Notes: generated by a model not told the origin, from the sequence alone. A DNA stretch of 64,000 nucleotides from Spirochaetia bacterium (GCA_963675665.1 OY776510.1:1856001-1920000); one strand, 5' to 3'; counted from the first letter of the stretch, positions 3,359-47,073 are shown. Made by a program: numbers and translations.

Positions 3359-4324
3359 ATGAAACGTTTTTTTTGCTCCGTCATCATCTTTTCTGTTCTG
3401 ACAATGTCTCTTATGGCGGAAAAACCGGTTACAACCGTACTTGACTTTCAAACGAACGGTATATCTGAAAATGATATGAAATCAATAATTTCCTTTCTGT
3501 CTGCCGAACTTTTTGCTACGGGAAAATACAGGGTTATCGATACTGCTCAGCGTGAGACCATACTACATGAGCTTGAGTTCTCGGCTTCCGGCTGTACCGA
3601 TGAAAGCTGCCAGCTTGAAATAGGCAAACTGCTTTCGGCCGAGTATATTGTAGTCGGTGATATTGCGGTTGTAGGTACCCGTTATATACTTTCCGCCAGA
3701 ATTCTTGAAACTGAAACCTCCGAAACAACCGGAATAGCCAGGGGCGTCTATAAGAACTTTGATGAGCTTGTGGATGATATGTCTTTATTCGCCGCCGGGC
3801 TTTCGGAAAACAGTGAAACAGTTTCTGCTGAACCGGGGCTCGATGCTGCTGTAGAGCCTGAACCTGCCGGGACCGTAGAGCCTGCGGTTTTAACGGAAGA
3901 AGAACCGGTAGCCGAAAAAACCGCGGCAATACCTTCAGGCAGGCGGACAGTCTGGGCCTGGTCGACTATGGGCGTCGGCGTTGCTGCAGCGGGACTCGGC
4001 GGGTATTTAATGTATTCAGCATTCAGTTATAAAACGTCAACAGTAGATCCTGCCTATACCGCTTACATTGAAGCGGAATCAGATACTTTTGAAACCTCGG
4101 CAATAGATTATTATAACGATTTTTGGACAGCCTACGATTCCGCATACAGCAAGTTTGCAGGAAAGCTTATTCTTTCATCAGTACTTTCCGGTGTCGGGCT
4201 GGTATCTGTCGGAGTATCGGTCTATTTATTTTTAACCGATGCAAAAGATGACGATCCGGAAATATCATTATTATTTCTGCCTGCAAATGACGCGGCAACG
4301 GTTTCGTTCAGGATAAGGAAGTAG
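3359..4324 (+). CDS. Exported CsgG/HfaB-like-domain protein with a C-terminal hydrophobic/membrane region
   Basis: Signal peptide; TVLDF, GKYRVIDTAQRETILHELEFSASGCTDESCQLEIGKLLSAEYIVVG; two Gly-rich hydrophobic segments; GGAG RBS. Confidence 0.75.
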   Translation: MKRFFCSVIIFSVLTMSLMAEKPVTTVLDFQTNGISENDMKSIISFLSAELFATGKYRVIDTAQRETILHELEFSASGCTDESCQLEIGKLLSAEYIVVGDIAVVGTRYILSARILETETSETTGIARGVYKNFDELVDDMSLFAAGLSENSETVSAEPGLDAAVEPEPAGTVEPAVLTEEEPVAEKTAAIPSGRRTVWAWSTMGVGVAAAGLGGYLMYSAFSYKTSTVDPAYTAYIEAESDTFETSAIDYYNDFWTAYDSAYSKFAGKLILSSVLSGVGLVSVGVSVYLFLTDAKDDDPEISLLFLPANDAATVSFRIRK

Positions 4325-4333
4325 GTGGTTATT

Positions 4334-6091
4334 ATGAAATTAGTCAAAAGTATTATAATAGTTTCTGCTGCCGTACAGCTGATTTTTTTCGGCTGTAAAC
4401 TGCCGCGTGATAATATAAATGATCCCCTTTCTCCCGCCAATGATGATGGTAAATCTCCGGCAATAGTAAGCATAACCCCGGCCGGCGGTGCCGCCGATGT
4501 CAGCTCGGATACGTCCATCGTTGTGACCTTTTCCGAAACTATGGATAGAACTTCAGTTGAAGCTGCATTCAGCCTGGCAGGTACTGGTTCCGTCAGCGGA
4601 ACATTCAGCTGGGCAGTTGCTGATACTGTTATGACATTTACGCCTGATGATCTGCTTGCATACTATCAAAACCATTCAGTAGTCATCAGCTCGGACTCAG
4701 CTGATGCGTTCGGCAACAAGCTGGCTACGGACTGGTCAGGCGATTTTACAAGCAGCGGGGCTGCCGGAAGGCTTGATACGGACTTTAACGGACAGGGATA
4801 TGTACTACATCACAATGCGGCCGGCGGAAACGGTACCGATTCGGGAAACGATATTGTAATAGATAATAACGGGAAACTTGTTATAACCGGTCACAGCGAC
4901 AATGCCGCGGGGAATAAGGACATGGTCATCTGGCGATATAACAGCAACGGGAGTCTCGATACTACATTCAATTCTCCGAACGGCTATGTAGTTCATGACA
5001 ATGCTGCAGGCGGCGGGGGTGATGATTATGGCAACGGGATTGCGATAGATACCGACGGCAATATTGTCGTATGCGGCTACAGTTTTAATGCCTCCGGCGA
5101 TGAGGATATGGTGATTTGGCGGTATAACAGCAGCGGGAGCCTCGATACAACATTCAATTCTCCGAACGGCTATGCAGTTCACGGTAATGCAGCGGGGGGC
5201 AACGGAGCGGATATAGGCAATGATATTGCTGCAAATAACACTGGTAAGATTATCGTTACGGGAGAAAGCATGAATGATACCCCCGGTGTTTTCAGAGATA
5301 TGGTAATCTGGCAGTATAACAGCGATGGAACTCTTGATACAGGCGGGTTTAACTCTCCGGAAGGTTATACATTATTTAACAGTGTTGGAGGAGCCGGCGG
5401 GAGCGGTGAATACCGGGACTATGGATACGATATCACACTGAGCAGCAGCGGCAAAATCCTTGTGGCAGGAAAAAATTACACTTATGTCCCCGATCCGGAT
5501 GAAGAGGACATGATGCTTTGGAGGTACGACACCGACGGAGGTCTTGATGATTCCTTCAACGGTCAGGGCTGGGCAACGCACGACAATGCAGCCGGCGGAA
5601 ACGGGTTTGATTTGGCCTACGGAGTAGCGATTGACCGTGACAGCAGGATTCTTGTAACCGGTAACAGCCACAGCGGCGCAAGCTATGATATGGCGACCTG
5701 GCGCTACAACAGTAACGGGACAATTGATACGACATTTAACGGACAGGGCTGGGTAACTCACCATGATGCAGCCGGCGGAAACGGTTATGACACCGGTGGA
5801 ATTGTATCTGATGATTCAGGTGGAAAGATAGTGGTGGCAGGTAAAAGCATCAGTGAGGATTATGATGAGGATATCGCGATCTGGCGATATAATCACGACG
5901 GAAGCCTTGATACCAGCTTCGGCGCTGTTGATAATAAATGCGGGTGGGTAACTCACAACTCCGCCGCCGGAGGAAATTCTTCTGAGTCAGCTAATGGTAT
6001 GGTATTCGATTCCGATGGGAAAATCGTCCTTGTCGGCAGCAGTAAAAATGCCTCAGGCAATTCCGATATGGTGATCTGGCGGTATGAATAG
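4334..6091 (+). CDS. Lipoprotein with an SbsA/Big_5 Ig-like domain and a delta-60-type repeat beta-propeller
   Basis: Lipobox IFFGC; PAIVSITPAGGA..IVVTFSETMD..TFTP Ig domain; about 7 repeats DMVIWRYNxxGxLDTTFN. ATG 4334 preferred over GTG 4325. Confidence 0.85.
   Translation: MKLVKSIIIVSAAVQLIFFGCKLPRDNINDPLSPANDDGKSPAIVSITPAGGAADVSSDTSIVVTFSETMDRTSVEAAFSLAGTGSVSGTFSWAVADTVMTFTPDDLLAYYQNHSVVISSDSADAFGNKLATDWSGDFTSSGAAGRLDTDFNGQGYVLHHNAAGGNGTDSGNDIVIDNNGKLVITGHSDNAAGNKDMVIWRYNSNGSLDTTFNSPNGYVVHDNAAGGGGDDYGNGIAIDTDGNIVVCGYSFNASGDEDMVIWRYNSSGSLDTTFNSPNGYAVHGNAAGGNGADIGNDIAANNTGKIIVTGESMNDTPGVFRDMVIWQYNSDGTLDTGGFNSPEGYTLFNSVGGAGGSGEYRDYGYDITLSSSGKILVAGKNYTYVPDPDEEDMMLWRYDTDGGLDDSFNGQGWATHDNAAGGNGFDLAYGVAIDRDSRILVTGNSHSGASYDMATWRYNSNGTIDTTFNGQGWVTHHDAAGGNGYDTGGIVSDDSGGKIVVAGKSISEDYDEDIAIWRYNHDGSLDTSFGAVDNKCGWVTHNSAAGGNSSESANGMVFDSDGKIVLVGSSKNASGNSDMVIWRYE
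4765..6088 (+). repeat. Intragenic tandem repeat, about 7 units of about 60 aa (beta-propeller blades)
   Basis: Recurring LDTxFNxxxGxxxHxNAAGGNGxD...GKIxVxG...DMxIWRY; near-identical DNA ctcgatacwacattcaattctccgaacggctatg at about 4955 and 5141. Confidence 0.85.
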
Positions 6092-18490: not shown

Positions 18491-18538
18491 CCCGGCTGTG
18501 CTTTATTAAAACCGTATAAAAATGTAAGATGTCCCGGT

Positions 18539-20158: not shown

Positions 20159-20169
20159 GTCCCTTTGAA

Positions 20170-20979: not shown

Positions 20980-21746
20980 AATCTGACCTTTATCCTTATT
21001 CCGCCCGGAACATCCTGTTCCGAAACAACATACAGGTATCCGCCGCCGCAGCCCGAATACATTGCACCGTCATACCGTTCCTGGTAATGCCTCATTACTT
21101 TTTTCAGATCTACTTTCAGTGTCTGGTGAAGAACGGTTCCCGGCAGGATTTTTTCCCAGCATTCCATGCAGGTGTTCATTGATGCACCGAGCGCTTTTGA
21201 GTCCATATTTATTATGGCGTCAAAGCAGTCCCTGCCTGTCTGTCCCAGCCGGCGGACATCTTCAGGTTCGAGGTTCCTGGTTTCAAGCGGATTATACCCT
21301 TCAGGCCGCTGTGCGACAGGAACCAGACTGATGTTTCTTTCAAGCCATTCAGCTGTTTCCTGTCCGGTGTTCGATTCGATATGAAAAGGAAAATAACCGC
21401 CTTCATGCTCAATGGAATAGTCAAGCCTGCTTATTCCCGGGTAGATGATTCCTACCATATCCTGTGAACCCGACGGCGCCGGAAGATCCTTGTTTTCTTC
21501 ATTGTATAATTCGCGTGTCAGTCGGCCGTAATCTTCATCAGGAATTTTTCCGTTCCAGATCCGCTGGGCAACTTTCCGTGAGCTGGTGGCCATCCCGCAT
21601 CTGTCCATCAGCCTGAATTGCGGTTGAATGCTTACTACGACCATTGATCCGAAAGAGTCGGGGTTTACGGCGGAAACAAACGGCTGATCGATCCAGCCGC
21701 CTGCAAACGCCATTCGGTAGGGAATCATGCCGATTGCATCAGTCAT
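20976..21746 (-). CDS. GHMP-superfamily sugar kinase-like protein (HddA/fucokinase-like)
   Basis: PYRMAFAGGWIDQP, CGMATSS, SGSQD, SGCGGGY. Confidence 0.75.
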   Translation of the reverse strand: MTDAIGMIPYRMAFAGGWIDQPFVSAVNPDSFGSMVVVSIQPQFRLMDRCGMATSSRKVAQRIWNGKIPDEDYGRLTRELYNEENKDLPAPSGSQDMVGIIYPGISRLDYSIEHEGGYFPFHIESNTGQETAEWLERNISLVPVAQRPEGYNPLETRNLEPEDVRRLGQTGRDCFDAIINMDSKALGASMNTCMECWEKILPGTVLHQTLKVDLKKVMRHYQERYDGAMYSGCGGGYLYVVSEQDVPGGIRIKVRL

Positions 21747-21748
21747 TT

Positions 21749-22756: not shown

Positions 22757-22836
22757 AATTGTCCTCCATAATAAATACATCATAGAGCCGGGATTGCTTG
22801 ATAACAATGCTCAAAAAGCGTAGTATTTATAATGAA

Positions 22837-23970: not shown

Positions 23971-23993
23971 TATACGGATTCATAAAGAATATA

Positions 23994-24467
23994 TCATAGA
24001 GAATCTGAGCCGGGAGACCCTTCAGTTCCCCACTCATATGTACGTTTGAGATAGTTCATTACTACAGAGGAGTCGGCTCTTAGTACTCCTCTTATATTAT
24101 ATATTTTTTTAAATATTAAATCTTCCATCTCCTGAAGCGATCTTACGTTGAACTCAACATCCAGATCATGGGCGCCGGTAGTGACTGCTATATACCAAAT
24201 TTCTTTAATCTGCTTGATTTCATTAATAACGCTATCTGCATAATACGGATCCAGCTGCACTTTTATTAATCCGGATATGGGAAATCCCAGCTTGATAGGG
24301 TCGCACACGGCTACAATCTGAAAAACCTTGTTGTCTTTCAGGATCTGAACCCTTTTCCGGATTGTTGTTTCCGATACTCCGATTTTTTCAGCTATTGTTT
24401 TAAACGGCAGTCTGCCGTCCTGCTGCAGTAATTTGATTATCTCGGTATCAATTTTATCAATTTCCAA
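23994..24467 (-). CDS. Lrp/AsnC-family regulator
   Basis: IDTEIIKLLQQDGRLPFKTIAEKIGVSETTIRKRV; TTGAHD. Confidence 0.95.
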   Translation of the reverse strand: MEIDKIDTEIIKLLQQDGRLPFKTIAEKIGVSETTIRKRVQILKDNKVFQIVAVCDPIKLGFPISGLIKVQLDPYYADSVINEIKQIKEIWYIAVTTGAHDLDVEFNVRSLQEMEDLIFKKIYNIRGVLRADSSVVMNYLKRTYEWGTEGSPGSDSL

Positions 24468-24576
24468 AACGCAGCTCCTGTTTTTGTCTCATTAACAATA
24501 TACTTGCATAACCTTCCATGTTCAAGATTCAGGGCTGTTTTAAGAAGTTAATTTGATATGGATTAAATATATAAGT

Positions 24577-24685
24577 CGTAAAACAAATAAATATATCAAA
24601 ATAAAACGTAAAACAAACTAAAAAGGCAAAAAAAAGCGAAATACAAACATTTTTTCTTGACATAAGAAAATTTTGACCTTACCAT
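24577..24685 (+). promoter_or_regulatory. Sigma70 promoter with three upstream direct repeats spaced 30 bp (candidate Lrp sites)
   Basis: TTGACA 24657-62, 17 bp, TACCAT 24680-85; CGTAAAACAAA at 24577 and 24607, CGAAATACAAA at 24637. Confidence 0.7.
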
Positions 24686-24721
24686 AAATGAAATTCATAT
24701 ATTTGGAGGGTAGAAATTAGT

Positions 24722-26092
24722 ATGGATCATTATGGAATTCTTTCCCTGGTTCCGGCGATAGTAATAATACTGTTCGCACTGAAAACACGGAAAACATTTG
24801 AGGCTCTGCTTCTTGGATCGGTTATAGCGTATATAATCATCCATGGGTTCAGGTTTTTCATGCCGTGGCTGAACAAGCTGCTGGAGGTTTGCTCCGACGG
24901 TGATACAGCCTGGTATGTAATAGCTTTCGGCCTGTTCGGAGCTTTTCTTGCGCTTGCGGAAGAATCGAGAGGTTCATTTGCATTCTCAAAACTGTTGCTG
25001 AAATGGTGCAGGAACCAGAGACGAAGTCTCATCTCAACTTTTATAATCGGCGTTGTACTGTTTGTTGATGATTACCTTGATTCAATTACCTCAGGGGCCG
25101 TCATGAAACCCATCTGCGACAAGAACAAGCTTCCCCGTGAATCAATGGCTTATGTTATCGATTCAACAGCAGCCCCCATGTGCGTAATTGTACCGATCTC
25201 AACCTGGGTTATTTTTTATTCGGGTGTATTCGGCAACGACGAATCTTTTGCGCACCTCGGTTCCGGGATGGAAATATATCTTAAGGCCTTGCCGTTTATC
25301 TTTTATGCATGGATAGCCCTGGTAATTGTTTTTCTTTTCTCGATGCAGATTATTCCGCCGATCGGTCCAATGAAAAAGGCCTACCAGAGGGTTAAGGATA
25401 CCGGTAAAACATTTTCGGATCGCAGCATTGAACTGAATGCTGAAACTGAAGAGGTTAATCTTGATGAAATCAACACAGTTAAGGGTGTAATAAACTTCCT
25501 GGCCCCGCTGGCTCTTCTTGTTGTTGTTACCTTACTTACTGAAGATATACTTGTTGCTGTTATAGCGGCAGTAGCATTACAGTTTGTTTTATACGTACCT
25601 ACTAAAACCATAGGGTTTGATCACTTTTTTAAATCTGTAGTGAAGGGTTTTCAGAACATGCTGCCGATGATCTTCATTCTTGTCGGTGCATTTATGGTGC
25701 AGGCAACTTCAAAGGAAATAGGTCTGGCGAATTTTGTAGTTGAGAAACTTGAACCCATAATGGGTGCAAACATATTCCCTGCGATAACGTTTCTGGCCGT
25801 TTCCGTTGTCTCCTTCATTACAGGCAGCAACTGGGGTGTTCCGGCCCTTATGGTACCGATAATATTTCCTCTTGCCATCGCTGTCGGCGCAAATCCTTAC
25901 CTTACGGCAGCGGCTATAGTCGGCGGAGGAACTTTCAGCAGTCATATATGTTTCTATTCAGATGCGACTGTTCTTACTTCCATAGCATCAGGCTGCGATA
26001 ACATGGATCACGCGTTGACGCAGGCTCCGTACGGTTTTATAGGTGCGGCAGTTACCTTCGTATTAACCCTGATTCTGGGATTTATTTTGTAA
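24722..26092 (+). CDS. NhaC-family transporter (probably an amino-acid/amine substrate)
   Basis: FVDDY, YVIDSTAAP..PISTW, TGSNWG, SHICFYSDATVL. Confidence 0.88.
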   Translation: MDHYGILSLVPAIVIILFALKTRKTFEALLLGSVIAYIIIHGFRFFMPWLNKLLEVCSDGDTAWYVIAFGLFGAFLALAEESRGSFAFSKLLLKWCRNQRRSLISTFIIGVVLFVDDYLDSITSGAVMKPICDKNKLPRESMAYVIDSTAAPMCVIVPISTWVIFYSGVFGNDESFAHLGSGMEIYLKALPFIFYAWIALVIVFLFSMQIIPPIGPMKKAYQRVKDTGKTFSDRSIELNAETEEVNLDEINTVKGVINFLAPLALLVVVTLLTEDILVAVIAAVALQFVLYVPTKTIGFDHFFKSVVKGFQNMLPMIFILVGAFMVQATSKEIGLANFVVEKLEPIMGANIFPAITFLAVSVVSFITGSNWGVPALMVPIIFPLAIAVGANPYLTAAAIVGGGTFSSHICFYSDATVLTSIASGCDNMDHALTQAPYGFIGAAVTFVLTLILGFIL

Positions 26093-26143
26093 TCATTTAC
26101 GGCTGCCGGGAGGGTATTCCCGGCGGCTTACAAGAGGTTTTTT

Positions 26144-27346
26144 ATGAAGATATTAATTTTAGGCGGCGGCGGGTTAATGGGTTCCGGTACTGTGAGGGAT
26201 CTTGTTTCCGGCCAGTCCTCCGGTTCCGGTATTAAAGAGGTAATAGCAGCTGATTATGACATTGCTGCGGTTAGGAAACTTGCAACTGAGCTTGGTGATC
26301 CGAGAATTACACCGGTCGGGGTTGACGTCAGGGACGCAGCCGGCGTAAAGGACCTGCTCGAAAAGGCGGATCTGTGCATAAATGCTGTTCCCACTTTTTT
26401 GGATCTGCAGCTTGATATTTTTCATTACTGTCTTGAAACGCACACGCCCTATGTTGATTACGGCGGAATGGGAATATACACTGAAAAACAGAAAGCTGAA
26501 CATGATAAATGGGTTGCTGCCGGCGTTCCGGCAATTCTCGGGCTGGGAGCTGATCCGGGAATGTCCAATGTTATCTGCCGTTCTGTGGCCGATGAACTTG
26601 ACACGATCGACAGTATTAACCTTTTTTGGGCGGCGAAGCTTGACGGACCGGATAACCCGGTGCTGGTGCCGGCATACAGTACTTTAACTCTGCTTGCAGA
26701 GTTTGCCCGCCCGAGCAAACAGTTTTACGACGGAAAACTGGTGGAGATGCCGCCGCAAAGCGGTAAAGTTACAAAAATTCTGCCGGAGCCTTTCGGCAAA
26801 ACGGAATTTATGCATTCGATGCATTCCGAACCGTTAACCGTACCTTTTTCAAGGGGTATTAAAGAAAAGGGAATCAGGGAAATGACATGGCGGCTGCATC
26901 TGCCCGAATATGAAAATTCATTATGGAAATCCATGGTTTCAGCCGGGTTCGGAGATTTTGATGATCCTGTTGATTTTCATGGTAATAAAATTATGCCCGG
27001 AGAGTTTCTGGAATTATTGATAAAAAGAAATATTGAGCGGAACAGCTCGCTGATTCCGGAACAAACCTATTATGAGATTCATTTCGCAACGGGCATCGGA
27101 ACAATAAACGGTATGCCGGCTGAGGTTACAACAACAGTAATGGTGAATCCGGATCCCTTATATGAAAAGTATAATGATGCGGGAACATCAATGAACTGTT
27201 CAATAGGAGCACAGATGCTTGGTCTTGATCTTGTCCGGCCCGGAGTCTGGGGGCCTGAAGAGTGCCTTGATGTCGGCAGATATTTTGAAGAATTGAGAAA
27301 AAGAAAATTTGAAATCAAAACTGAAATCACAGTTATTAAAAAATAA
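26144..27346 (+). CDS. Saccharopine dehydrogenase-family oxidoreductase, copy 1
   Basis: ILGGGGLMG, YVDYGG, GLGADPGMSN, HSEPLTVP, GVWGPE. Confidence 0.85.
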   Translation: MKILILGGGGLMGSGTVRDLVSGQSSGSGIKEVIAADYDIAAVRKLATELGDPRITPVGVDVRDAAGVKDLLEKADLCINAVPTFLDLQLDIFHYCLETHTPYVDYGGMGIYTEKQKAEHDKWVAAGVPAILGLGADPGMSNVICRSVADELDTIDSINLFWAAKLDGPDNPVLVPAYSTLTLLAEFARPSKQFYDGKLVEMPPQSGKVTKILPEPFGKTEFMHSMHSEPLTVPFSRGIKEKGIREMTWRLHLPEYENSLWKSMVSAGFGDFDDPVDFHGNKIMPGEFLELLIKRNIERNSSLIPEQTYYEIHFATGIGTINGMPAEVTTTVMVNPDPLYEKYNDAGTSMNCSIGAQMLGLDLVRPGVWGPEECLDVGRYFEELRKRKFEIKTEITVIKK

Positions 27347-27367
27347 AACGCTTTTAAGGAGATAAAA

Positions 27368-28627
27368 TTGAAACGAGTATTGGTCATCGGTGCAGGTGCA
27401 CAGGGCGGACCCTGTGCTTCGATACTTGCCAGGGGTTCCGAAATGGAGGAAGTTATTCTTGCCGATATTGATATGGATTTATGCCGAAAGGTTAAAAATA
27501 AAATCGGAAGCGGCAAGGTTTCTGCCGTGAAACTAAACGCGGGCAACGTAGAAGAGATTGAAAGAGCTGCCCGGGGGTGTGATGTTGTCATTAACCTGAC
27601 CCTTCCTGTATTCAGCGAAAAAATAATGCAGGCAGCTTTGAATGCGGGGGCCCATTATGTGGATACCTCGTTCGGCGAACCCGAACTGATGGATATCTGC
27701 GCAAGGGACAACATATTGTCCCAGATTATAGAAGGACGAGACCTTCTGCTTGATAAGGAATTTAAAAATGCCGGCTTGACAGCACTTGTCGGCTGCGGCG
27801 GAACCCCGGGTTTTCTTAATGTGGGCGTAAGATACCTGTGCGATAAACTCGATGAAGTTGAAGAAATACGAATGAAATTCGGCGAAGGTCCTGTAGGGAA
27901 TCAGCCTGAAGAACTTGTCGCCGGAGCATGGAATCCCGGATGGAACCCTTTCAGGGCCCTTTGGGGTTATGCGGTTGAACCCGCAATATTCAGAAACGGC
28001 AAATACGAAACATCTCCGATATTCGGCGAACCTGAAGTGTACAAGTTTCCCGATCCTCTTGGAGAGATAGCAATATGTCACCACCAGCACCAGGAGCAGG
28101 TTACGCTGCCGTTTTTTATCGGAAAGGGAATAAAGTACTGTGAATTTAAATACCCGGTTGATAATCAGGCTGCAACCTTCGTTAAAATGGGATTTGGTAA
28201 ACCAGATACAATAACGGTGAATGGTCAGGAAGTCTCACCAAGGGACGTTCTTATGAAAATGATGGTGCCGCCTGGTAATGTTTTTCTGGAAGAAAATGAG
28301 AAAACCGCGGCGGAACCTCTTGAGGCCACACAGATATGGGTAGTTGAAGTTAAGGGCCTTGAAGGCGGAAAACCCGTTACCTATACCTTGTCGGAGCCCT
28401 ATACCTTCATCCTGACAACCGAGGATAAAATAAAGGTTTACGACCTCTTCGGCTCCACTGATGTCGGCGTGGCCCTGCCTGCCGTTATCGGTGCGAAGAT
28501 GTGTTCATCGGGACGTACAGAATCAGGGACAATATCCTCCGAATGCCTCGATCCGAATATTTTTCTGAAACTTCTGGCGGAAACCGGCGTCCCCCTTTCC
28601 GTGGAAGATAGAGTCGTAAGGAGTTGA
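27368..28627 (+). CDS. Saccharopine dehydrogenase-family oxidoreductase, copy 2
   Basis: VIGAGAQG, HYVDTS, GCGGTPG, HQEQVTLP, SECLDP. Confidence 0.85.
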   Translation: MKRVLVIGAGAQGGPCASILARGSEMEEVILADIDMDLCRKVKNKIGSGKVSAVKLNAGNVEEIERAARGCDVVINLTLPVFSEKIMQAALNAGAHYVDTSFGEPELMDICARDNILSQIIEGRDLLLDKEFKNAGLTALVGCGGTPGFLNVGVRYLCDKLDEVEEIRMKFGEGPVGNQPEELVAGAWNPGWNPFRALWGYAVEPAIFRNGKYETSPIFGEPEVYKFPDPLGEIAICHHQHQEQVTLPFFIGKGIKYCEFKYPVDNQAATFVKMGFGKPDTITVNGQEVSPRDVLMKMMVPPGNVFLEENEKTAAEPLEATQIWVVEVKGLEGGKPVTYTLSEPYTFILTTEDKIKVYDLFGSTDVGVALPAVIGAKMCSSGRTESGTISSECLDPNIFLKLLAETGVPLSVEDRVVRS

Positions 28628-28631
28628 CTGT

Positions 28632-29849
28632 ATGTTTAAATACCTGATAGTCGGCGCCGGGGCACAGGGCGCCGCTTGCGCGTCAATTCTGGCCAATGAT
28701 GAGGAAACGGAAAAAGTTGTTCTGGCCGATATAAATATTGATCAGGCCCGAAGGGTCGTTGAACACATCGGATCAGCAAAATTTTTTGCAGAACGGGTAG
28801 ATGCTTCTGACGTAGAAGATATTGTAAGGCTTGCGAACGGGGTTGATATAATCCTTAATTTTGCTCTTCTGAAATTTAATCCGCAGATAATGCAGGCGGC
28901 AATGAAAGCCGGGGTGCATTATATTGATACGGCTTTTGATAACCCTATCTGGAATGAGCTTGAAACTGAATTCCCGCTGAAAGTCGGGCTGCAGTTTGAA
29001 GAGAAAAATATTACCGGAATTGTCGGTTGTGGAGGAGCCCCGGGGCTTATTAATGTGTTCGCCAGGCTTATCTGCGATACTATGGATACAGTCGAATCGA
29101 TAAAACTGAAAGTCGGCCACAGGGACCTGGCTAAAAAGGACAGGATAACAACCTGGATCCCATCATGGTGCCCGGAAATAGCATTAACGGATTATGCCGA
29201 TCCTCCGACAGTTTTTACAAACGGGAAATATACACAGGTTCCGGCATTTGCCGGGCAGGAGGAATATGAATTCCCCGGGCCGGTGGGAAAGAACCTGATA
29301 GCGCACCATCACCATGAAGAGCCGGTGACCCTTCCCAGGTTTATCGGAAAGGGTGTAAAGCATGTTGAGTTCAAATACGCGGTGGATCTTAACGCGGCGT
29401 CTTTTGTAAAGATGGGGTTTGCCGGTTACGACAAGATAAACGTAAAGGGCGTAGAAGTAGCGCCTATCGATGTATTAATGAAACTGGTAAAGCAGCCTTC
29501 GGACAATTTTTTCACGGAAAATGAAGAAACAGCGGCAAAAGATTCAACAATTCTGCACCCCTACCTGGTTGAAGTGGAAGGCGCCGTGAACGGTAAAATA
29601 TATAAACACAAGCTGTGGTATCCGTGTTCATTGACATCAAGCGGCAGTGAAAAACTGGAAGTCTTCAGGAAATTCGGAACAACAAATATTGCTGTCGCGT
29701 TGCCTGCTGTCGCCGGCGCAAAAATGATCCTCAAAGGAAAAGCCGATTTCGGAGTTATAGCTCCGGAATGTCTTGATCCGAAAGCATTCCTTAACGAAAT
29801 GGCTGAAACAGGGTGGGCCGTAAAGTATGAGGAAGAAATCGGTCGATAG
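28632..29849 (+). CDS. Saccharopine dehydrogenase-family oxidoreductase, copy 3
   Basis: IVGAGAQG, HYIDTA, GCGGAPG, HEEPVTLP, PECLDP. Confidence 0.85.
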   Translation: MFKYLIVGAGAQGAACASILANDEETEKVVLADINIDQARRVVEHIGSAKFFAERVDASDVEDIVRLANGVDIILNFALLKFNPQIMQAAMKAGVHYIDTAFDNPIWNELETEFPLKVGLQFEEKNITGIVGCGGAPGLINVFARLICDTMDTVESIKLKVGHRDLAKKDRITTWIPSWCPEIALTDYADPPTVFTNGKYTQVPAFAGQEEYEFPGPVGKNLIAHHHHEEPVTLPRFIGKGVKHVEFKYAVDLNAASFVKMGFAGYDKINVKGVEVAPIDVLMKLVKQPSDNFFTENEETAAKDSTILHPYLVEVEGAVNGKIYKHKLWYPCSLTSSGSEKLEVFRKFGTTNIAVALPAVAGAKMILKGKADFGVIAPECLDPKAFLNEMAETGWAVKYEEEIGR

Positions 29850-29872
29850 ACCTCCAGAAAGTATTTAAAAAT

Positions 29873-29908
29873 GGGAATCTCTAAAAACTGCAGTTTTTAG
29901 AGATTCCC
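29873..29908. repeat. Perfect 36-bp palindrome (REP-like or bidirectional terminator)
   Basis: GGGAATCTCTAAAAACTGCAGTTTTTAGAGATTCCC between convergent genes, followed by a second stem ggtttccccg/cggggaagcc. Confidence 0.85.
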
Positions 29909-29966
29909 CAATATCAAAACCGGTTTCCCCGTTGTTTTCGCTCAGACATCGGGGAAGCCTTTTACC

Positions 29967-30578
29967 CTACTTGACCTTTATATAGTAATAAACAGCAACG
30001 TTTTTGGGACGGGTTTCGGGGCCTGTGCGCGGCGTCCCGTTTGTTCCGTCTGTGTAGATTTCTGCAAACGAATCCTGATTGTTAAATCGTGCTATTGCGT
30101 AAGATCCGTTACCAATGTTTGTATACTCGTCGTTGCCTAATGCCTCAGCTCCAACTGACAGGGTGTGACCCTGGAACTGATCCTCCTGGAAATCTCCGAC
30201 GGATCTTGTGTCTGGGTCCTGATACCCGTCGTTTCTGCTCTCGTTAAGGCCTCTCAGAAACATTCCCCTCAAGTCGGGCAGATTTGCCTTACCCGTTGCG
30301 GCGGTGTATTCGGCAGTGGCTGCCGAGCCGTCGGCAAGAGCATACCTGTCTCCTGCTGTCGCATACATCTGAACGGGAGTAAGCATGGAGGTTATTATCG
30401 TACCTACAGGGGCTTCTCCGGCATTTAAAGTTTTAATATAATTCAGCAGTGTGTTAAAGTTTTCGTTCATTGAGGCTGCCGACACCACCTCGCCTGCTGA
30501 AAAGATGTTGGGTCTAGTCTGTGCAGAAAGATCTAAACTGATCAGGATAAGACAAAGAATAACAATTATTTTTTTCAC
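29967..30578 (-). CDS. Secreted phage tail-collar-domain protein A
   Basis: GTG start after GGAG; signal peptide ..LDLSA|Q; FSAGEVVSAASMNENF; LPDLRGMFLRG; DQFQGH; ETRPKNVAVYYYIK. Confidence 0.85.
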   Translation of the reverse strand: MKKIIVILCLILISLDLSAQTRPNIFSAGEVVSAASMNENFNTLLNYIKTLNAGEAPVGTIITSMLTPVQMYATAGDRYALADGSAATAEYTAATGKANLPDLRGMFLRGLNESRNDGYQDPDTRSVGDFQEDQFQGHTLSVGAEALGNDEYTNIGNGSYAIARFNNQDSFAEIYTDGTNGTPRTGPETRPKNVAVYYYIKVK

Positions 30579-30597
30579 TTTTATTAACTCCTGATAT

Positions 30598-30670
30598 ATC
30601 TTAGAGTTAGATTGGATCATTGTCAATGAAAATTACTATCCTTGTGTTCTTGGATAACTCATGGTACTCT
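30598..30670. promoter_or_regulatory. Divergent sigma70-like promoters of the tail-collar module
   Basis: Minus strand TTGACA(30626-21)-17-TAAGAT(30603-598); plus strand TTGTGT(30642-47)-17-TACTCT(30665-70), which is weaker. Confidence 0.6.
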
Positions 30671-30679
30671 TTAAACATA

Positions 30680-31549
30680 ATGAAAAAAAGATTACCTTTC
30701 AGATTAAAATTTATTTGGTTTACATGTTTGATTCCGTTCTTTTTTGCTGTTGAAATATCTGCTCAGGAATCTAATCCCATCATAACTGTTCTTGATTTTA
30801 AAACCGGCAGTATTGCCGAAAGCGATATGCAGCTCATTGTGACTATGCTTTCAACTGAACTGTTCAATACCGGAAAATACACTGTTATTGATGCCAGTCA
30901 ACGAGATGTAATTCTGGCCGAGATGGCATTCTCTCTTTCCGGATGTGCTGACGAATCGTGTCAGTTGGAAGTAGGAAAAATGCTATCGGCGGATATGATT
31001 GTTGTCGGAAGCGTCGGCAGGGCCGGAAGCAGACTGATTCTTGATACGAAGATCCTGAGGACCGAGACAGGAGAAACTGTATATACGGCCAACGGTAAAT
31101 ACGTTGAAACTGATGAGCTGATCGATGATCTCCCTTTTATTGCACTGAAACTGACCGGAGATACTGCTGCCGGGCTCGAACCGGTTGAAAAGCAGCTGAC
31201 GGCAAGAGAAATTACCGGCTGGTCGCTAATCGGCGGCGGTGCTGTTCTGGGCATGATCGGAGGGGTTCTTATGGCTACTGCAGCTGATTATAAAATTTCA
31301 ACGGTCGATGTTTCTTACCAGGCTTATCAGGATGCCTGGTACGGGGATGATTTTGAGACCCTTCGCGCAGATTATCTTGATAATCTTGAATCGTATAAAC
31401 TGAAATCGATATCGGGTACGGCTGCTGCAGGAGCAGGCATTGGATGTCTGGCTGCGGGTATTGTTCTTCTGCTGTTGCCCGATACGGCTGATAACAATGT
31501 CAGTGTAGAAGCAGGGCCTTCGGCTTTGGCTTTCAGGTTGTCGTATTAG
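30680..31549 (+). CDS. Exported CsgG/HfaB-like-domain protein, paralog of 3359..4324
   Basis: Signal ..EISA|Q; TVLDF, GKYTVIDASQRDVILAEMAFSLSGCADESCQLEVGKMLSADMIVVG; hydrophobic C-terminal segments; ends AFRLSY. Confidence 0.78.
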   Translation: MKKRLPFRLKFIWFTCLIPFFFAVEISAQESNPIITVLDFKTGSIAESDMQLIVTMLSTELFNTGKYTVIDASQRDVILAEMAFSLSGCADESCQLEVGKMLSADMIVVGSVGRAGSRLILDTKILRTETGETVYTANGKYVETDELIDDLPFIALKLTGDTAAGLEPVEKQLTAREITGWSLIGGGAVLGMIGGVLMATAADYKISTVDVSYQAYQDAWYGDDFETLRADYLDNLESYKLKSISGTAAAGAGIGCLAAGIVLLLLPDTADNNVSVEAGPSALAFRLSY

Positions 31550-31558
31550 GGGGCCGGA

Positions 31559-31750
31559 ATGAAAAAAATAATCTTGTTGATATTGGTTGCAACGGTATTT
31601 TTACTGACGACATGTAAAAATTTATGGGATTTTGAGCAGCTGCCTCTGAACAATATTGCAGATCCATCAGCTGCTGAATATATAGACAGATTAACCGTTA
31701 CCGCTGTCTGGGAGGACAGCCAGTGGGACGGCGCCGTTTTCGGCGAATAA
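31559..31750 (+). CDS. Small lipoprotein (63 aa) with C-terminal WEDSQWDGAVF motif
   Basis: MKK, hydrophobic core and LLTTC lipobox; AGGGGG RBS; tightly spaced in the operon. Confidence 0.8.
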   Translation: MKKIILLILVATVFLLTTCKNLWDFEQLPLNNIADPSAAEYIDRLTVTAVWEDSQWDGAVFGE

Positions 31751-31778
31751 TATAAGGAAAGGTCTTTAAGGAAAGAGT

Positions 31779-32423
31779 ATGAAAAAATCATTATTAATTA
31801 TTATCATCGCTGCTTTGTTTTCAGCGGCAGTCACAGCACAGAGCATCCCGAACAGCTTTACCGCCGGAGATGTAATTTCGGCCGCGGATATGAATGAGAA
31901 CTTCCAGGCGCTTCTACTTTTAATCAATCAGGTTGAAGGCGGCGGCACTGTAGGCGATGTGGTCTGCTCAATGCTTACCGAAGCCCAGTTTCAGTCCCAG
32001 AGAAGTACCGACTGGGTTCTGATGGACGGTCGTGATGTAAGCGGGAGCCAGTATGAGATAGTTACCGGGAACAGTTCACTCCCGGATGCCCGCGGAACGT
32101 TCCTGCGTTCAAAGAACAACGGGCGGGCGGACGGCGACGAAAACCCTGCAGGAGATCTGCCGCTTGGCACTTATGAGGCAGATCAGTTTCAGGGGCATTA
32201 TCATGATTACAGCGTCACCTCGACAGCCTTAATTATTAAGGATGAACCTGAAACGTCAAGTTGGGTTGAATCAGCAGCTAATGATTCGCAGCATGTAGCA
32301 TGGAACAGCTCAAATTTCAGCATAACAGCCCCTGCAACTGACGGTATCAACGGCACCCCGCGTACCGGAGACGAAACGCGTCCCAAGAGCATAACAGTTA
32401 ATTTTTTTATTAAAATAAATTAG
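31779..32423 (+). CDS. Secreted phage tail-collar-domain protein B
   Basis: Signal ..AVTA|Q; FTAGDVISAADMNENF; WVLMDG; LPDARGTFLR; DQFQGHYH; ETRPKSITVNFFIKIN. Confidence 0.85.
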   Translation: MKKSLLIIIIAALFSAAVTAQSIPNSFTAGDVISAADMNENFQALLLLINQVEGGGTVGDVVCSMLTEAQFQSQRSTDWVLMDGRDVSGSQYEIVTGNSSLPDARGTFLRSKNNGRADGDENPAGDLPLGTYEADQFQGHYHDYSVTSTALIIKDEPETSSWVESAANDSQHVAWNSSNFSITAPATDGINGTPRTGDETRPKSITVNFFIKIN

Positions 32424-32516
32424 GGGTGCAACAGGCATAATTCCTTTTCAGGCGACTTGCAATCAATAAATAATTCTCTTATCCTGTATTAAAATCCGCT
32501 TGTTGAAGGAGAACCC

Positions 32517-32738
32517 ATGTCCACAAACTGTCAAAACAAATCAAAAAACATGAAATACTGCAACTGTACCTTCCCCTGCGGTAAAAAAGGGACCTGCTGT
32601 GAATGTATCAGCTACCATTGTTCTTTAGCTCAGCTGCCTGCTTGTTATTTTCCGAATGATGCGGAAAGTTCAGGCGACCGTTCAATAGAAAACTTCATCA
32701 GCGTTTACCGTAAACGCGGCGCCGGATATCTAAAATAA
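32517..32738 (+). CDS. Small Cys-rich protein (DUF6485-like)
   Basis: CNCTFPCGKKGTCCECISYH..LPACYFP..DRS; AAGGAG RBS; own TTGCAA-17-TATCCT promoter. Confidence 0.8.
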   Translation: MSTNCQNKSKNMKYCNCTFPCGKKGTCCECISYHCSLAQLPACYFPNDAESSGDRSIENFISVYRKRGAGYLK

Positions 32739-32774
32739 TTGGATATATTGTAAAAACGGTCGTAAAAGGCCTAA

Positions 32775-32828
32775 AAACAATCAAAAAAAAGCAAAAAGCT
32801 TTACAAACAATCACAAATTTGTTATGCT
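32775..32828 (+). promoter_or_regulatory. Sigma70 promoter with AAACAATCA direct repeats (candidate DeoR operators)
   Basis: TTTACA 32800-05, 17 bp, TATGCT 32823-28; AAACAATCA at 32775 and 32805. Confidence 0.6.
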
Positions 32829-32849
32829 CTAATTATCAGAGGATAATAA

Positions 32850-33650
32850 ATGGCTGCAAATTTGATTCCGGCCGGTCGTCGCGCGGGAATACTATCTTTT
32901 ATAAAGGATAAAGGCTTTGCCAGTGTAGAAGAGCTGGCTTCCAGGTTCGAAGTGTCGGTAATAACAATAAGACGCGACCTGGATCAGCTTGAATCTGATA
33001 ATTTAATTGAGCGTACCCACGGCGGAGCAATATATACACGGCACATTGCGGTAGAATCATCATATACGGAAAAGAATTCGCAGAACCGCGAAAATAAAAA
33101 TGCAATCGGAATGCGGGCTGCAGAACTTGCTGCGCCGGGCGAAACGGTATTTGTGAACAACGGATCAACAACTCACCAGATAATCAGGGCGCTGCTTGGT
33201 ATCCGTAATATCAGGATTGTAACCAATAACATTGTTGCGGTTCTTGAGGCTGATCCGGGTCCTGATTGTGAACTGATTCTTGTCGGCGGACGATATCGTT
33301 TTAATTCAGGCTGTACAATCGGCAGTTTTGCAGAAGCTGTGATCAGACAGCTGAATGTTTCAAGGACCTTTATAGGAGCCGACGGTATCAGCCTGAAAAG
33401 CGGAATAACATCGCCGGTGGCGGAGGAAGCGGCAATCACGCGAATGATGATTGAGCATACGGCCGGAGAGATTACCATAGCGGCCGACAGCTCAAAGATT
33501 GGAAAGATATCAACGTTTTTTATTTCATCACTTAAAAGTATAGACAACCTGGTAACGGATAACGATTTTGATGAAAAATACAGACCGGACTTTGAAGAAG
33601 CAGGAATTAAAATAATAACAACAGGGAATGAAAAAATTACTTCAATGTAA
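32850..33650 (+). CDS. DeoR/GlpR-family regulator
   Basis: VSVITIRRDL, RTHGGA, GSTT, ADSSKIG. Confidence 0.95.
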   Translation: MAANLIPAGRRAGILSFIKDKGFASVEELASRFEVSVITIRRDLDQLESDNLIERTHGGAIYTRHIAVESSYTEKNSQNRENKNAIGMRAAELAAPGETVFVNNGSTTHQIIRALLGIRNIRIVTNNIVAVLEADPGPDCELILVGGRYRFNSGCTIGSFAEAVIRQLNVSRTFIGADGISLKSGITSPVAEEAAITRMMIEHTAGEITIAADSSKIGKISTFFISSLKSIDNLVTDNDFDEKYRPDFEEAGIKIITTGNEKITSM

Positions 33651-33702
33651 TTTTTTCATTCACCCTGCCCATCGTGGCAGGAATATTTTATAGGAGTGTA
33701 AA

Positions 33703-34830
33703 ATGGCGTATCAGGACCAGTACAAAGACTGCAAATGGGTTGATTTTGAAATTATGGAAAGTTTCATGAAGGACTGTCTCGTTAAAAGCGGAGTGCCTGC
33801 AGATGATGCCGAGGTTGTATCGGACGTTCTTATCGAATCCGATAAACGCGGTATTGATTCCCATGGTATAGGAAGGCTTAAACCCATCTACATAGACAGA
33901 ATCGACTGGGGTATTCTTAACCCGGTTACGAAGATTGATACCGTAAAGGAAACTGCCACAACAGCTGTTATCGACGGTAACAACGGAATGGGTCATGTTG
34001 TCTCAAAGAAAGCGATGCAGACGGCAATCGACAAGGCAAAAGAGCACGGCATGGGCATGGTTGCGGTCAGAAACTCCACGCATTACGGAATTGCCGGGTA
34101 TTACTCATTGATGGCATGCAAGGCGGGAATGATCGGTATTACCGGCACAAATGCGCGACCTTCAATAGCTCCGACTTTCGGCGTTGAAAATATGCTCGGG
34201 ACCAATCCGTTGACAATTGGTTTCCCGACCGACGAAGAGTTTCCGTTTGTACTTGACTGTGCAACCTCCGTGTCCCAGCGCGGCAAGATTGAGATGTACA
34301 GCCGTGCCGGAAAGGAACTTCCTCCGGGATGGGTAATAGGCCGTGACGGAACTGCCCGAACTGATACGGATCAGATACTTGTGGATCTTACAAAAGGACA
34401 GGCTGCTCTGGCTCCTCTCGGCGGTCTGGGAGAAAGTACCGCCGGATTTAAAGGTTTCGGATATGCTACCGTAGTCGAGGTCCTTTCGGCAGCGCTGCAG
34501 GGCGGATCTTTTCTGAAAGATTTGAACGGGTTTGATGAAAAAGGCAACCGGATCCCTTATCCGCTGGGTCATTTTTTCATAGCTATTAATATAGATGCTT
34601 TTCTCGGTATTGATATATTCAAAAAGATTGCCGGAACGATAATGAGAGACCTTCGTAATTCAGAAAAGGCTCCCGGCGAAGAAAGAATATATACAGCCGG
34701 AGAAAAGGAATGGATCGCGTGGAATTACCGAAGGGAGCACGGCTGCCCGGTTCCTGAAGTACTGCAGAAGCAGATGATTGAACTTCGCGACCGCTGGGAT
34801 CTGGATTACAAATTTGAATGGGATAATTAG
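33703..34830 (+). CDS. Ldh_2-family (type 2 malate/L-lactate dehydrogenase-like) oxidoreductase
   Basis: RGIDSHG, NSTHYG, GTNP, DCATS, KGFG. Confidence 0.9.
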   Translation: MAYQDQYKDCKWVDFEIMESFMKDCLVKSGVPADDAEVVSDVLIESDKRGIDSHGIGRLKPIYIDRIDWGILNPVTKIDTVKETATTAVIDGNNGMGHVVSKKAMQTAIDKAKEHGMGMVAVRNSTHYGIAGYYSLMACKAGMIGITGTNARPSIAPTFGVENMLGTNPLTIGFPTDEEFPFVLDCATSVSQRGKIEMYSRAGKELPPGWVIGRDGTARTDTDQILVDLTKGQAALAPLGGLGESTAGFKGFGYATVVEVLSAALQGGSFLKDLNGFDEKGNRIPYPLGHFFIAINIDAFLGIDIFKKIAGTIMRDLRNSEKAPGEERIYTAGEKEWIAWNYRREHGCPVPEVLQKQMIELRDRWDLDYKFEWDN

Positions 34831-34860
34831 ATAAGTACATCCGTGTACTTATCTAATTTT
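34825..34860 (+). terminator. Intrinsic terminator-like hairpin
   Basis: aattagataagtaca-tccg-tgtacttatctaatt followed by T. Confidence 0.7.
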
Positions 34861-34936
34861 GAAGTTTATAAGGCAATGCCTTATAAACTTCATTACTAAA
34901 AACCGCCATCCATGGCGAATAATCAGGAATACTATT

Positions 34937-36220
34937 ATGGACGAACTGAAAGAGAAAGCATTGAAATATCACAGCGCCGGGGGCAGGGCCGGAAAAATTG
35001 AGGTAGTGCCGACAAAACCGTGTGTTACCGCCGAGGATCTTTCGCTGGCGTATACGCCCGGAGTTGCGAAACCTGTACTTGAAATTGCGGAGAACCCGGA
35101 AGATGCCTATAAATATACTGCCAGGGGCAACCTTGTTGCTGTTGTATCGAACGGCACAGCAATTCTTGGTCTGGGCAACCGGGGCGCGTTGGCTTCAAAG
35201 CCGGTAATGGAAGGGAAGGGCGTTCTGTTTAAAAGGTTTGCAGATATTGATGTTTTTGATATTGAACTCGATACGGAAGACCCCGAAAAAATAGTTAATA
35301 TCGTTAAAACAATGGAGCCTACATTCGGGGGAATTAATCTCGAAGACATCAAGGCCCCTGAATGTTTTGAGATTGAGAAGAAACTTATTGAAATCTGCGA
35401 TATTCCCGTATTTCATGATGATCAGCACGGTACGGCAATAATCTGTACGGCGGGGCTTCTGAATGCCTGTGAAGTGACGGGAAAGGCGCTTGATCAGGTG
35501 AAGGTTGTTTTCAACGGTGCGGGGGCAGCCGGAATAAGCTGCGCCCTGATGTTTCTTTCCGCCGGGGTGAGAAAAGAGAACCTTCTGATGTGCGACAGCC
35601 GCGGTGTTATCCAAAAGGGACGGGAAGGCCGGCTGACGCCGCAGAAAGCCCAATTTGCAGCGGACACGGATGCGCGGACGCTTGCGGATGCCATGAAAGG
35701 CGCGGATGTTTTCGTAGGGCTTTCCACAGCCGATGTTGTATCGCCCGAAATGCTGTTAAGCATGGCGGCCGATCCGGTAGTTTTCGCCATGGCCAACCCG
35801 AACCCTGAAATAGAATACGAACTTGCCGTGGCAACCCGTTCCGACCTGATTATGGCAACCGGACGGAGCGATTATCCCAACCAGGTGAATAACGTCCTCG
35901 GGTTTCCGTTTATATTCCGAGGCGCCATGGATGTGAAAGCGAAAAAAATCTCCGAGGGAATGAAGATGGCGGCGGCCAGAGCGCTTGCCGGTCTGGCTAA
36001 AGAACCCGTTCCCGACGAAGTTCGTTCCGCATACGGACGTGATTTCAGTTTCGGCAGGGAATACATTGTTCCGAAACCGTTTGACCCCCGGGTAATAGAA
36101 TGGGAAGCGGTAGCGGTTGCGAAGGCCGCCTGTGATGAAGGTCTTGCCGCCGCGCCCGTTACCGACTGGGATGCCTACCGTTCCGCATTGAAAGCGCGAA
36201 TGAAGCGTTACTGGACGTAG
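34937..36220 (+). CDS. Malic enzyme (short form, no PTA domain)
   Basis: [47 protein letters not shown]. Confidence 0.95.
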
Positions 36221-46996: not shown

Positions 46997-47073
46997 TATT
47001 ATATGATAAACCATGATCCGGTCCGTGTAAAATAAAAGGCCGGTTTTTGTTGTGTCTGATGATGTGCCGCCTG

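Follow-up and report, generated by a model that had tools for sequence, protein, structure and literature searches.

A candidate cell-envelope module of exported phage-derived fibres, a CsgG-fold protein and a mini-lipoprotein in a spirochaete genome

The locus and its four genes

The stretch of DNA analysed here, hereafter the window, comprises 64,000 nucleotides (nt) of a Spirochaetia bacterium (GCA_963675665.1 OY776510.1:1856001-1920000), and all coordinates are counted from its first letter. It contains genes for two fibre proteins with phage-type heads (fibres A and B), for a membrane protein with the fold shared by CsgG, the N-terminal domain of TolB and LpoB (the CsgG-fold protein), and for a very small lipoprotein (the mini-lipoprotein) (Table 1). 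Because these three gene types recur together in distant spirochaete genera, the trio probably represents an undescribed module of the cell envelope rather than neighbours by chance or what is left of a prophage. We give a probability of roughly 0.6 to the reading that the four genes represent one instance of an envelope module that is conserved and in which the fibres are docked as proposed below.

Table 1. Position of the genes and other features considered in this work
Feature	Coordinates	Strand	Description
Fibre A ("collarA"), 203 amino acids	29967..30578	-	Signal peptide, N-module PNxFxxGxxVSAxxMNxNF, short helical neck, gp12-type collar/head ending ETRPKN..IK
CsgG/TolB-N/LpoB-fold membrane protein, 289 amino acids	30680..31549	+	Signal peptide; fold domain at residues ~34-158; helical hairpin; C-terminal beta-hairpin
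Mini-lipoprotein, 63 amino acids	31559..31750	+	Lipobox Cys19; NxxDP tether (N32, D35, P36); C-terminal W-x4-W-x4-F
Fibre B ("collarB"), 214 amino acids	31779..32423	+	Architecture as fibre A, complete HxH
Perfect 18+18 nt hairpin, terminator-like	29873..29908		Between a convergent saccharopine-dehydrogenase gene and the fibre A gene
Sigma70-like -35/-10 match TTGACA-17-TAAGAT	30598..30626	-	Upstream of fibre A; consensus match only
Comparator cassette	3359..6091	+	CsgG/LpoB-fold gene 3359-4324, then without gap a 588-residue lipoprotein gene 4325-6091, NxxDP tether, Big_5 and beta-propeller

All four open reading frames (ORFs) are present in the window sequence, so that the arrangement described in an earlier note on this DNA, two collar paralogs flanking a CsgG-fold gene and the gene for a 63-residue lipoprotein, is confirmed. 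The longest ORF of fibre A spans 29967-30626 and begins with TTG; the start is most likely not this codon but the GTG at 30578, which sits 9 nt after AGGAG and whose product begins at the same residue as a library representative of 203 residues. For the CsgG-fold gene, the ATG at 30680 is the position at which its homologs begin. Gaps of 9 and 28 nt separate the three plus-strand genes, and a purine-rich stretch precedes each ATG; for fibre B, which starts 28 nt past the lipoprotein stop, the ribosome site is AAGGAAAGAG. A promoter scan of the spacer between the fibre A and CsgG-fold genes returned a single sigma70-like match, on the minus strand and with 10 of 12 consensus positions, and none on the plus strand. 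Thus, of the divergent sigma70-type promoter that the two sides were thought to share, only the half facing fibre A was seen, as a consensus match. Region-wide, 10 sigma70-like sites were observed against 5.9 +/- 2.3 expected. Directly 3' of fibre B (32517-32738) lies a gene for a small cysteine-rich protein of the DUF6485 family (28.9 bits), which is kept in close relatives.

Exported fibres with heads of phage origin

The homology of the fibre heads to phage tail fibres is firmly indicated by sequence comparison. A profile built from 72 sequences of the family matched the solved short tail fibres 9cuy_c (4.1e-17) and T4 gp12 (1ocy, 1.5e-14; 5iv5, 4.4e-12) and also gp37 (2xgf, 3.1e-7), over about 160 residues that cover the collar, the head and the C-terminal strand. 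The three stretches taken at the outset as tail-collar hallmarks, LPDxRGxFLR, QGHxH and ETRPKN..IK, align in these comparisons with the corresponding stretches of gp12, and the PHROG entry "tail collar fiber protein" (phrog_523) matches the two fibres at 2.5e-17 and 1e-9, which bears out that assignment. The Pfam Collar model (PF07484) gave no match for fibre A or B even at E<=1; it does match homologs of the same architecture (L013, 9.2e-18; L246, 5e-19; L259, 2.3e-16). The AlphaFold2 (AF2) model of fibre B has a mean predicted local distance difference test (pLDDT) score of 72.9 and a disordered stretch at residues 151-176, and its best Foldseek matches are chains of T4 gp12 (5iv5_AI at 1.7e-4, 1pdi and 1ocy), with E values from 1.7e-4 to 5e-4, a probability of at least 0.99 and a template-modelling score of only ~0.34 for this monomer model.

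T4 gp12 (1ocy, 5iv5), together with the related 9cuy, is therefore the known protein to which the fibres come closest: they are alike over the C-terminal ~160 residues and gp12 is the best fold match. The window proteins differ from it in adding a signal peptide and a cellular N-terminal module, in their total length of 203-214 residues and in having no phage or baseplate context. The HxH motif is a metal site in gp12; H140-x-H142 of fibre B aligns with the "HKH" of gp12, whereas fibre A keeps the first histidine and lacks the second.

Signal peptides were judged by a heuristic for the n-, h- and c-regions and not by a dedicated predictor, and by this measure all four proteins, that is both fibres, the CsgG-fold protein and the lipoprotein, carry export signals. 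The fibres have a basic n-region, a hydrophobic core of 12 residues (mean Kyte-Doolittle hydropathy 3.6 and 3.1) and a cleavage-type site, LSA in one and VTA in the other, with small residues at -3 and -1 before a glutamine. These features agree with the Sec-type signal peptides that had been ascribed to both collar proteins. Directly after the signal peptide comes, in both fibres, the N-module F..G...S...MN.NF..L, in which eight positions are invariant across 13 diverse sequences, so that the common N-terminal segment noticed earlier is upheld well beyond the two window proteins. The AF2 model places a helix (residues 35-53) after this module of ~22 residues.

The same N-module also precedes heads that are not collars, among them small beta-rich heads and one head that has, by eye, a repeat pattern resembling a beta-helix. 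A library scan returned 8,326 representatives at E<=1e-3, a number that describes the collar family as a whole, because the scan profile also spanned the collar region. Among the 146 best new library representatives, 64 have the N-module; 44 of these 64 also have the collar tail, and 41 of the 44 start with a signal-peptide-like sequence. The fibres belong to a large and apparently unnamed family of exported proteins whose heads can be swapped. Many fibre homologs have, ahead of a hydrophobic helix, a conserved N-terminal peptide of ~22 residues (M.I.INI.IDDRI...LK) that the fibres of the window do not contain; it was seen in L214, L215, L218, L221, L229, L232, L241-L243, L261, L262, P0179 and P0227.

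Fibres A and B, with 38% identity over 212 residues (E 2e-45), are each more similar to relatives found elsewhere (60% and 68% identity) than to one another, which makes them old paralogs and not the result of a fresh duplication. The two closest database relatives are P0002, on a contig of 1,795 nt and with 68% identity, and P0019, on a contig of 4,572 nt.

A scan of viral contigs with a 10-sequence alignment yielded 19 loci, and the nearest relatives of residues 56-214 of fibre B were found there, with 49-51% identity (best match 51% over residues 58-214). The phage versions, of 143-188 residues, have neither signal peptide nor N-module. At the four phage loci considered, 10 of 20 neighbour proteins match tail or virion PHROGs (tail-fibre, minor-tail and internal-virion). 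Since the nearest relatives of the heads, which lack a signal peptide, sit in phage tail-fibre gene arrays, the term "domesticated" used for these proteins in the earlier note is apt.

Heads homologous to phage short tail fibres, with phage-encoded proteins as their nearest relatives, could also be expected from the remnant of a prophage, a tailocin or a contractile injection system, whose virion-type fibres would have merely incidental hydrophobic N-termini. However, scanning of 14 flanking proteins (window 18539-38561) showed metabolic and housekeeping functions, and none belongs to a capsid, sheath, baseplate, integrase, lysis or other phage family; the lack of nearby capsid, sheath, integrase and lysis genes had been stated in the earlier note. 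Phage genes are absent over about 12 kb. Export signals are found on both fibres and, by the same heuristic, signal-peptide-like or lipobox-like starts occur in 61 of 136 collar-homolog ORFs from 117 cellular-genome loci. Moreover, in 12 loci with exported homologs, none of 65 neighbour proteins matches a capsid, portal, terminase, sheath or baseplate PHROG; the matches obtained were one collar paralog, one secretin-like protein, one partial endolysin-like domain and one transposase. The absence of the signal peptide and the N-module from the phage versions likewise speaks against virion-type fibres. The setting is thus non-virion both at the locus and at those 12 loci, and a remnant of this kind is very improbable and already largely refuted. 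There are no transfer RNA genes in the 15-45 kb part of the window, no meaningful repeats flanking the cluster, no obvious anomaly in its G+C content and no match to PADLOC defence models at the locus. Judged from their sequences, the fibres are exported, phage-derived binding proteins.

The CsgG-fold protein, the mini-lipoprotein and their linkage to fibres

The middle protein matches Pfam LpoB (PF13036) with 27.5 bits (cut-off 22.3) and Pfam CsgG (PF03783) with 21.9 bits (cut-off 20.8). The latter match is confined to profile positions 42-98, that is 57 of 210, and for this reason "CsgG-like" holds at the level of the fold only. The protein has no lipobox: its leader ends in ISA, followed by QE, and its single cysteine, Cys16, lies inside the hydrophobic core. 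The AF2 model (pLDDT 84.6) consists of a compact alpha/beta domain, two long helices (175-217 and 225-265) and a C-terminal beta-hairpin ending in tyrosine; the helical hairpin has two hydrophobic stretches rich in glycine and alanine, and, as the model is a monomer, the arrangement may be different in an oligomer. In structure searches, the domain at residues ~34-158 matched LpoB (4q6l, 2.9e-6), TolB chains (4e-6 to 1e-4) and PelC (4e-5), as well as GNA1162, FlgT and, more weakly, CsgG. While it shares this domain with LpoB, the TolB N-domain, PelC and GNA1162, the window protein lacks both the lipoprotein nature of LpoB and PelC and the beta-propeller of TolB, and it possesses a C-terminal membrane part of its own. 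Thus the CsgG-like exported protein proposed earlier has the fold and the signal peptide, but, without a lipobox and with a predicted helical hairpin, it is not a member of the CsgG family; it shares the fold of periplasmic scaffold proteins and has the defining features of neither CsgG nor LpoB.

Of 201 genomes sampled from the phylum, 34 contain the CsgG/LpoB-fold family, which is represented by 19 hidden Markov model (HMM) matches in the 5.15-Mb genome of the window. Nine full-length copies, the one of the window included, are each followed by a lipoprotein gene at a distance of -34 to +21 nt. The mature N-terminus of these cassette lipoproteins reads Cys-x(2-18)-N-x-x-D-P/T. Genome-wide, the Cys-NxxDP motif is present in 9 of 411 lipoprotein-like ORFs, and seven of the nine lie directly downstream of a family member. 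The cassette lipoproteins are usually of 152-836 residues and carry adhesin-type cargo (FN3 and Big domains, beta-propellers, Listeria-Bacteroides repeats, FGE-sulfatase); the window itself holds such a cassette (Table 1). The two-gene cassette, of which no description was found, looks like a docking or sorting pair for lipoproteins. Further examples are the G000 loci L147-L151 and L092 and, in relatives, L084-L088, L166 and L167. A third family member of the window is a lipoprotein-like ORF of 529 residues on the minus strand (45425-47014), which has a C-terminal CsgG/LpoB-fold domain (HMM E 2.9e-25).

The 63-residue product has a hydrophobic leader ending in LTTC. It was at first taken for a truncated remnant of a cassette lipoprotein, because the tether is present and the cargo is absent; the idea of such a remnant beside unrelated fibres has been displaced by the phylum-wide co-occurrence described below and by the register of the tail. 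Its W-x4-W-x4-F tail aligns in register with ten mini-lipoproteins of other fibre loci. A regular expression for the tail matched 3 of 420 small lipobox-like ORFs in the genome, that of the window being the only convincing one, and among all fetched loci it matched in fibre-module loci only. The mini-lipoprotein of the window thus joins the NxxDP tether of the multi-copy type to the tryptophan tail, a combination that would fit an adaptor with one end for each partner. A complex prediction that combined residues 29-289 of the CsgG-fold protein, 21-214 of fibre B and 19-63 of the mini-lipoprotein, the last being the scored partner and each chain having its own alignment, scored 0.28 against a mark of 0.32, without controls, and speaks neither for nor against binding.

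When 401 genomes from the phylum of the window, Spirochaetota, were scanned, 69 had the fibre family; by genus, it was present in 36 of 153. Among the 29 best loci, with flanks of +/-1.5 kb, a CsgG/LpoB-fold HMM match stands beside the fibre gene in ten. Twenty loci from 18 genomes were refetched with flanks of ~6 kb (the wide set), and in 14 of these a CsgG-fold gene lies within 1.5 kb of the fibre gene, against about 0.3 adjacent loci expected by chance, as calculated from the 19 HMM matches in the 5.15-Mb genome. A mini-lipoprotein of 40-64 residues with the tail W-x4-W-x4-W/F is encoded in ten of the 20; one of these ten loci, L251, was recognised only on its shorter copy L222 and by eye. 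Conserved co-occurrence, a test set beforehand together with a lipoprotein tail of W-x4-W-D type, is therefore found within the phylum. The 14 loci with a CsgG-fold gene span eight genera and five families, and the gene order of the window (CsgG-fold protein, mini-lipoprotein, fibre or fibres) recurs in L243 and L261. Collar-headed fibres of other genera are 25-32% identical to those of the window, two non-collar fibres match in the N-terminal part only, and the CsgG-fold domains are 22-40% identical (13 of the 14 could be aligned by BLAST). As both fibres and CsgG-fold domains are so deeply diverged across eight genera, the linkage must be old. When the neighbours were searched with Pfam, Collar was found in both collar-headed fibres tested and not in the non-collar fibre of L243, and CsgG and/or TolB_N in all seven partners tested, six of which reach the curated cut-off.

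It has to be considered whether the fibre genes simply landed beside one of the many CsgG/LpoB-fold cassettes, the 63-residue lipoprotein being a truncated one with no role for the fibres. The genome offers ample opportunity, with its 19 family matches and nine lipoproteins directly downstream, which carry the same tether and are normally of 152-836 residues. In four long partners an FN3 domain begins where the 63-residue protein has its tail, and the tail can be aligned to the first strand of that domain. When short homologs were sought with a tool that needs shared words of five residues, the 63-residue protein alone was returned, and the region is variable between species. However, the three gene types stand together in eight other genera at deep divergence, in L243 and L261 even in the same order, and the W-x4-W-x4-F tail keeps its register with the ten mini-lipoproteins of fibre loci; outside these, no fetched locus has such a tail, and the genome offers no other convincing one. 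For these reasons we regard chance adjacency as quite unlikely.

Several observations nevertheless weigh against a conserved module that includes the four genes of the window. Outside the phylum, no CsgG/LpoB-fold or mini-lipoprotein neighbour was seen in 79 genome loci or in 52 metagenome loci, although many fibre homologs there carry signal peptides; these 131 related loci are mostly from other phyla, and 54 of the 79 genome loci but only 11 of the 52 metagenome loci are of at least 8 kb, while 30 of the 52 are shorter than 3 kb. Within the phylum, the CsgG-fold gene is missing from 6 of the 20 wide loci and from all seven loci of the f42 family, the latter with flanks of +/-1.5 kb only, and since the related genomes are kin, the counts of loci overstate their independence. 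The CsgG-fold protein of the window belongs to a multi-copy paralog family normally paired with large lipoproteins, and in its C-terminal part it is unlike the partners of other genera. No gene for a sigma factor of the extracytoplasmic function (ECF) type or for an anti-sigma factor, of the kind described below for relatives, was found among the 14 flanking proteins of the window. Finally, fibre genes were found in none of five genomes of the same genus and five others of the same family, which makes the module accessory.

The partners in other genera (L243-L262) are of 328-386 residues. Twelve of the 14 end in phenylalanine after alternating hydrophobic residues and the other two in leucine, and weak matches to outer-membrane-barrel Pfam families, below the cut-off, were obtained for L262 and L259. 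A C-terminal phenylalanine after alternating hydrophobic residues is typical of outer-membrane barrels, and these partners may reside in the outer membrane, with their CsgG-fold domain in the periplasm. An ECF sigma gene directly follows the module in L246, L249, L251, L253, L254 and L257-L261, and Sigma70_r2 was found in all five candidate sigma factors tested, in one of them below the cut-off. Next to the sigma genes there is either a protein of ~240 residues without a Pfam family, coming after the sigma gene, or, in L254 and L261, FecR-domain proteins alongside. The ~240-residue protein may be an anti-sigma factor.

Possible working of the module, known systems and signs of exchange between genomes

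According to these data the module would consist of one or more exported fibres, each with a signal peptide or else an anchor at the N-terminus, a nearly constant N-module, a neck and a swappable head, a CsgG-fold membrane protein and a tryptophan-tailed lipoprotein of 40-64 residues. Both heads of the window are collar/receptor-binding heads of the T4 gp12 type, captured from phage tail-fibre genes. The fibres would cross the inner membrane by Sec and presumably trimerise like their phage relatives, and the CsgG-fold protein and the mini-lipoprotein may keep them in place on the outer-membrane side of the envelope. Docking is likely to involve the N-module, because it is the sole part kept when heads are swapped, and the head would then be available for binding to a glycan or to some other ligand on a cell surface. 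Since an ECF sigma gene comes after the module in most relatives, the module may also be controlled by envelope signalling or feed it. A more specific form of this mechanism, which we put forward only tentatively, is that a ring of the CsgG/PelC type at the outer membrane, together with a CsgF-like adaptor with a tryptophan tail, exports or holds the fibres by their N-module, that the swappable phage tips recognise glycans or cells, and that the ECF sigma/anti-sigma pair reports on this in most lineages.

The ECF sigma genes could also be accounted for by a periplasmic sensor, in which fibres anchored N-terminally in the inner membrane would, together with their partners, sense a ligand or the state of the envelope and give their output via the sigma/anti-sigma pair, without any display at the surface. 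Besides the sigma factors (Sigma70_r2 in five of five tested) and the FecR-domain proteins of L254 and L261, this idea draws on the ~22-residue peptide and hydrophobic helix of many relatives, which resemble a signal anchor more than a plain signal peptide. It also agrees with the family and fold searches of the four proteins, which produced no outer-membrane secretion component, although no search was aimed at secretion motifs. In the window, however, the fibres begin with plain signal peptides that end in cleavage-type sites, the flanks hold neither a sigma nor an anti-sigma gene, and the heads share ancestry with tips that attach to outer surfaces. Moreover, the C-terminal phenylalanine of 12 of the 14 partners, if taken as an outer-membrane signal, and the two weak barrel matches point to the outer membrane. 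A purely periplasmic role thus appears unlikely, less so than chance adjacency but below the surface arrangement proposed above.

In curli secretion (CsgG, CsgF, CsgB-A), a CsgG-fold protein, a small accessory protein and the fibre are encoded together, and the presence of a CsgG-fold gene, a small-protein gene and fibre genes in one place is alike, as an analogy only. The window protein differs in having no lipobox, in matching 57 of 210 CsgG positions and in its predicted helical hairpin where CsgG has barrel hairpins, and no curli family (csgA/B/E/F) was found among the 14 flanking proteins scanned. Among the nearest precedents for the fibres are the mosaic adhesive trimer (MAT) fibres of Bdellovibrio bacteriovorus, which are located at the surface of the predator and have a beta-rich N-domain of ~130 residues after the signal peptide (Caulton et al. 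2024, PMC10769870). As described there, the MATs resemble the window fibres in being non-virion, phage-fibre-like proteins with a signal peptide, a conserved N-terminal part and varied tips. The window fibres have a ~22-residue motif and a helix in place of the ~130-residue domain, a distinction drawn from the published description and not from a comparison of sequences, and the passages of that paper on MATs name no CsgG-fold or mini-lipoprotein partner. Other cellular, non-virion tail-collar proteins are one from Ruegeria pomeroyi, detected among the secreted proteins of the exoproteome (PMC4949626), and C24 of Bizionia argentinensis (6ov6), which is only a weak Foldseek match (E 0.15); in the parts of the sources that deal with them, partner genes are described for neither. 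In Solibacter, positively selected tail-collar paralogs have been noted (PMC3174227).

No description of the module was found in the published literature covered, subscription journals being outside this coverage, and at the level of the system it is apparently new. Cellular reuse of phage receptor-binding proteins is known from few cases, such as the MAT fibres, and candidate partners of such fibres can now be named: a CsgG/TolB-fold protein, a tiny lipoprotein with fixed tryptophan spacing and, often, an ECF sigma factor. The phylum concerned is one in which envelope biogenesis and surface-protein sorting are poorly understood. If the link to the sigma factor is true, a phage-derived binding domain would be connected to bacterial gene regulation.

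The surroundings of the cluster vary between related organisms. Over 29893-32488, a contig with another organism label shows 21 differences in 2,596 nt (99.2% identity) and has the cluster intact, whereas its part corresponding to 32529-35000 (DUF6485-DeoR-Ldh_2) has 184 differences and eight gaps (~92.6% identity); a cluster of 99.2% identity adjoining a stretch of ~92.6% suggests the recent exchange of an accessory block. A contig from a seawater metagenome, about 95% identical and with a 14-nt deletion in a spacer, runs from the end of the CsgG-fold gene through that of the lipoprotein into the beginning of fibre B. From these alignments the cluster appears to be kept intact and may have been exchanged recently between related organisms. 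Together with the swappable heads, these signs of exchange suggest a fast-evolving recognition function.

In L164, from the same genus, genes matching window 18020-23970 abut the DeoR gene (window 32850), so that about 8.8 kb including the cluster (window ~23970-32850) are extra here. This block contains NhaC, three tandem saccharopine-dehydrogenase paralogs, the four-gene cluster and DUF6485. Two other species have different genes at that site, one of them (L163) an exported protein and a lipoprotein. When compared by hhalign, the CsgG/LpoB-fold profile matched neither the protein upstream of DeoR in L163 nor the one upstream of the fibre in L013.

Some further occurrences of collar proteins were recorded. 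Exported collar proteins often stand in arrays, with seven in a row in L023, a Roseivirga metagenome-assembled genome (MAG), and five in L261; two or more are present in 12 of 117 loci. A Bacteriovoracaceae MAG (L016) has a divergent pair of collar copies with a lipobox. Collar proteins of 195-219 residues without a signal peptide, probably of the "microcystin-dependent protein" type, occur in Rhizobium and relatives (L057, L064, L073-L078 and L080). In a Desulfobacterales MAG, a secretin-like gene (L024:11893-12594; PHROG "protein IV of M13", 3.8e-49) lies ~5 kb from a collar gene that has a signal-peptide-like start. On a short metagenome contig (L107:1563-2324), a collar gene with such a start is followed by a lipoprotein gene whose product seemingly begins with an FN3-like part.

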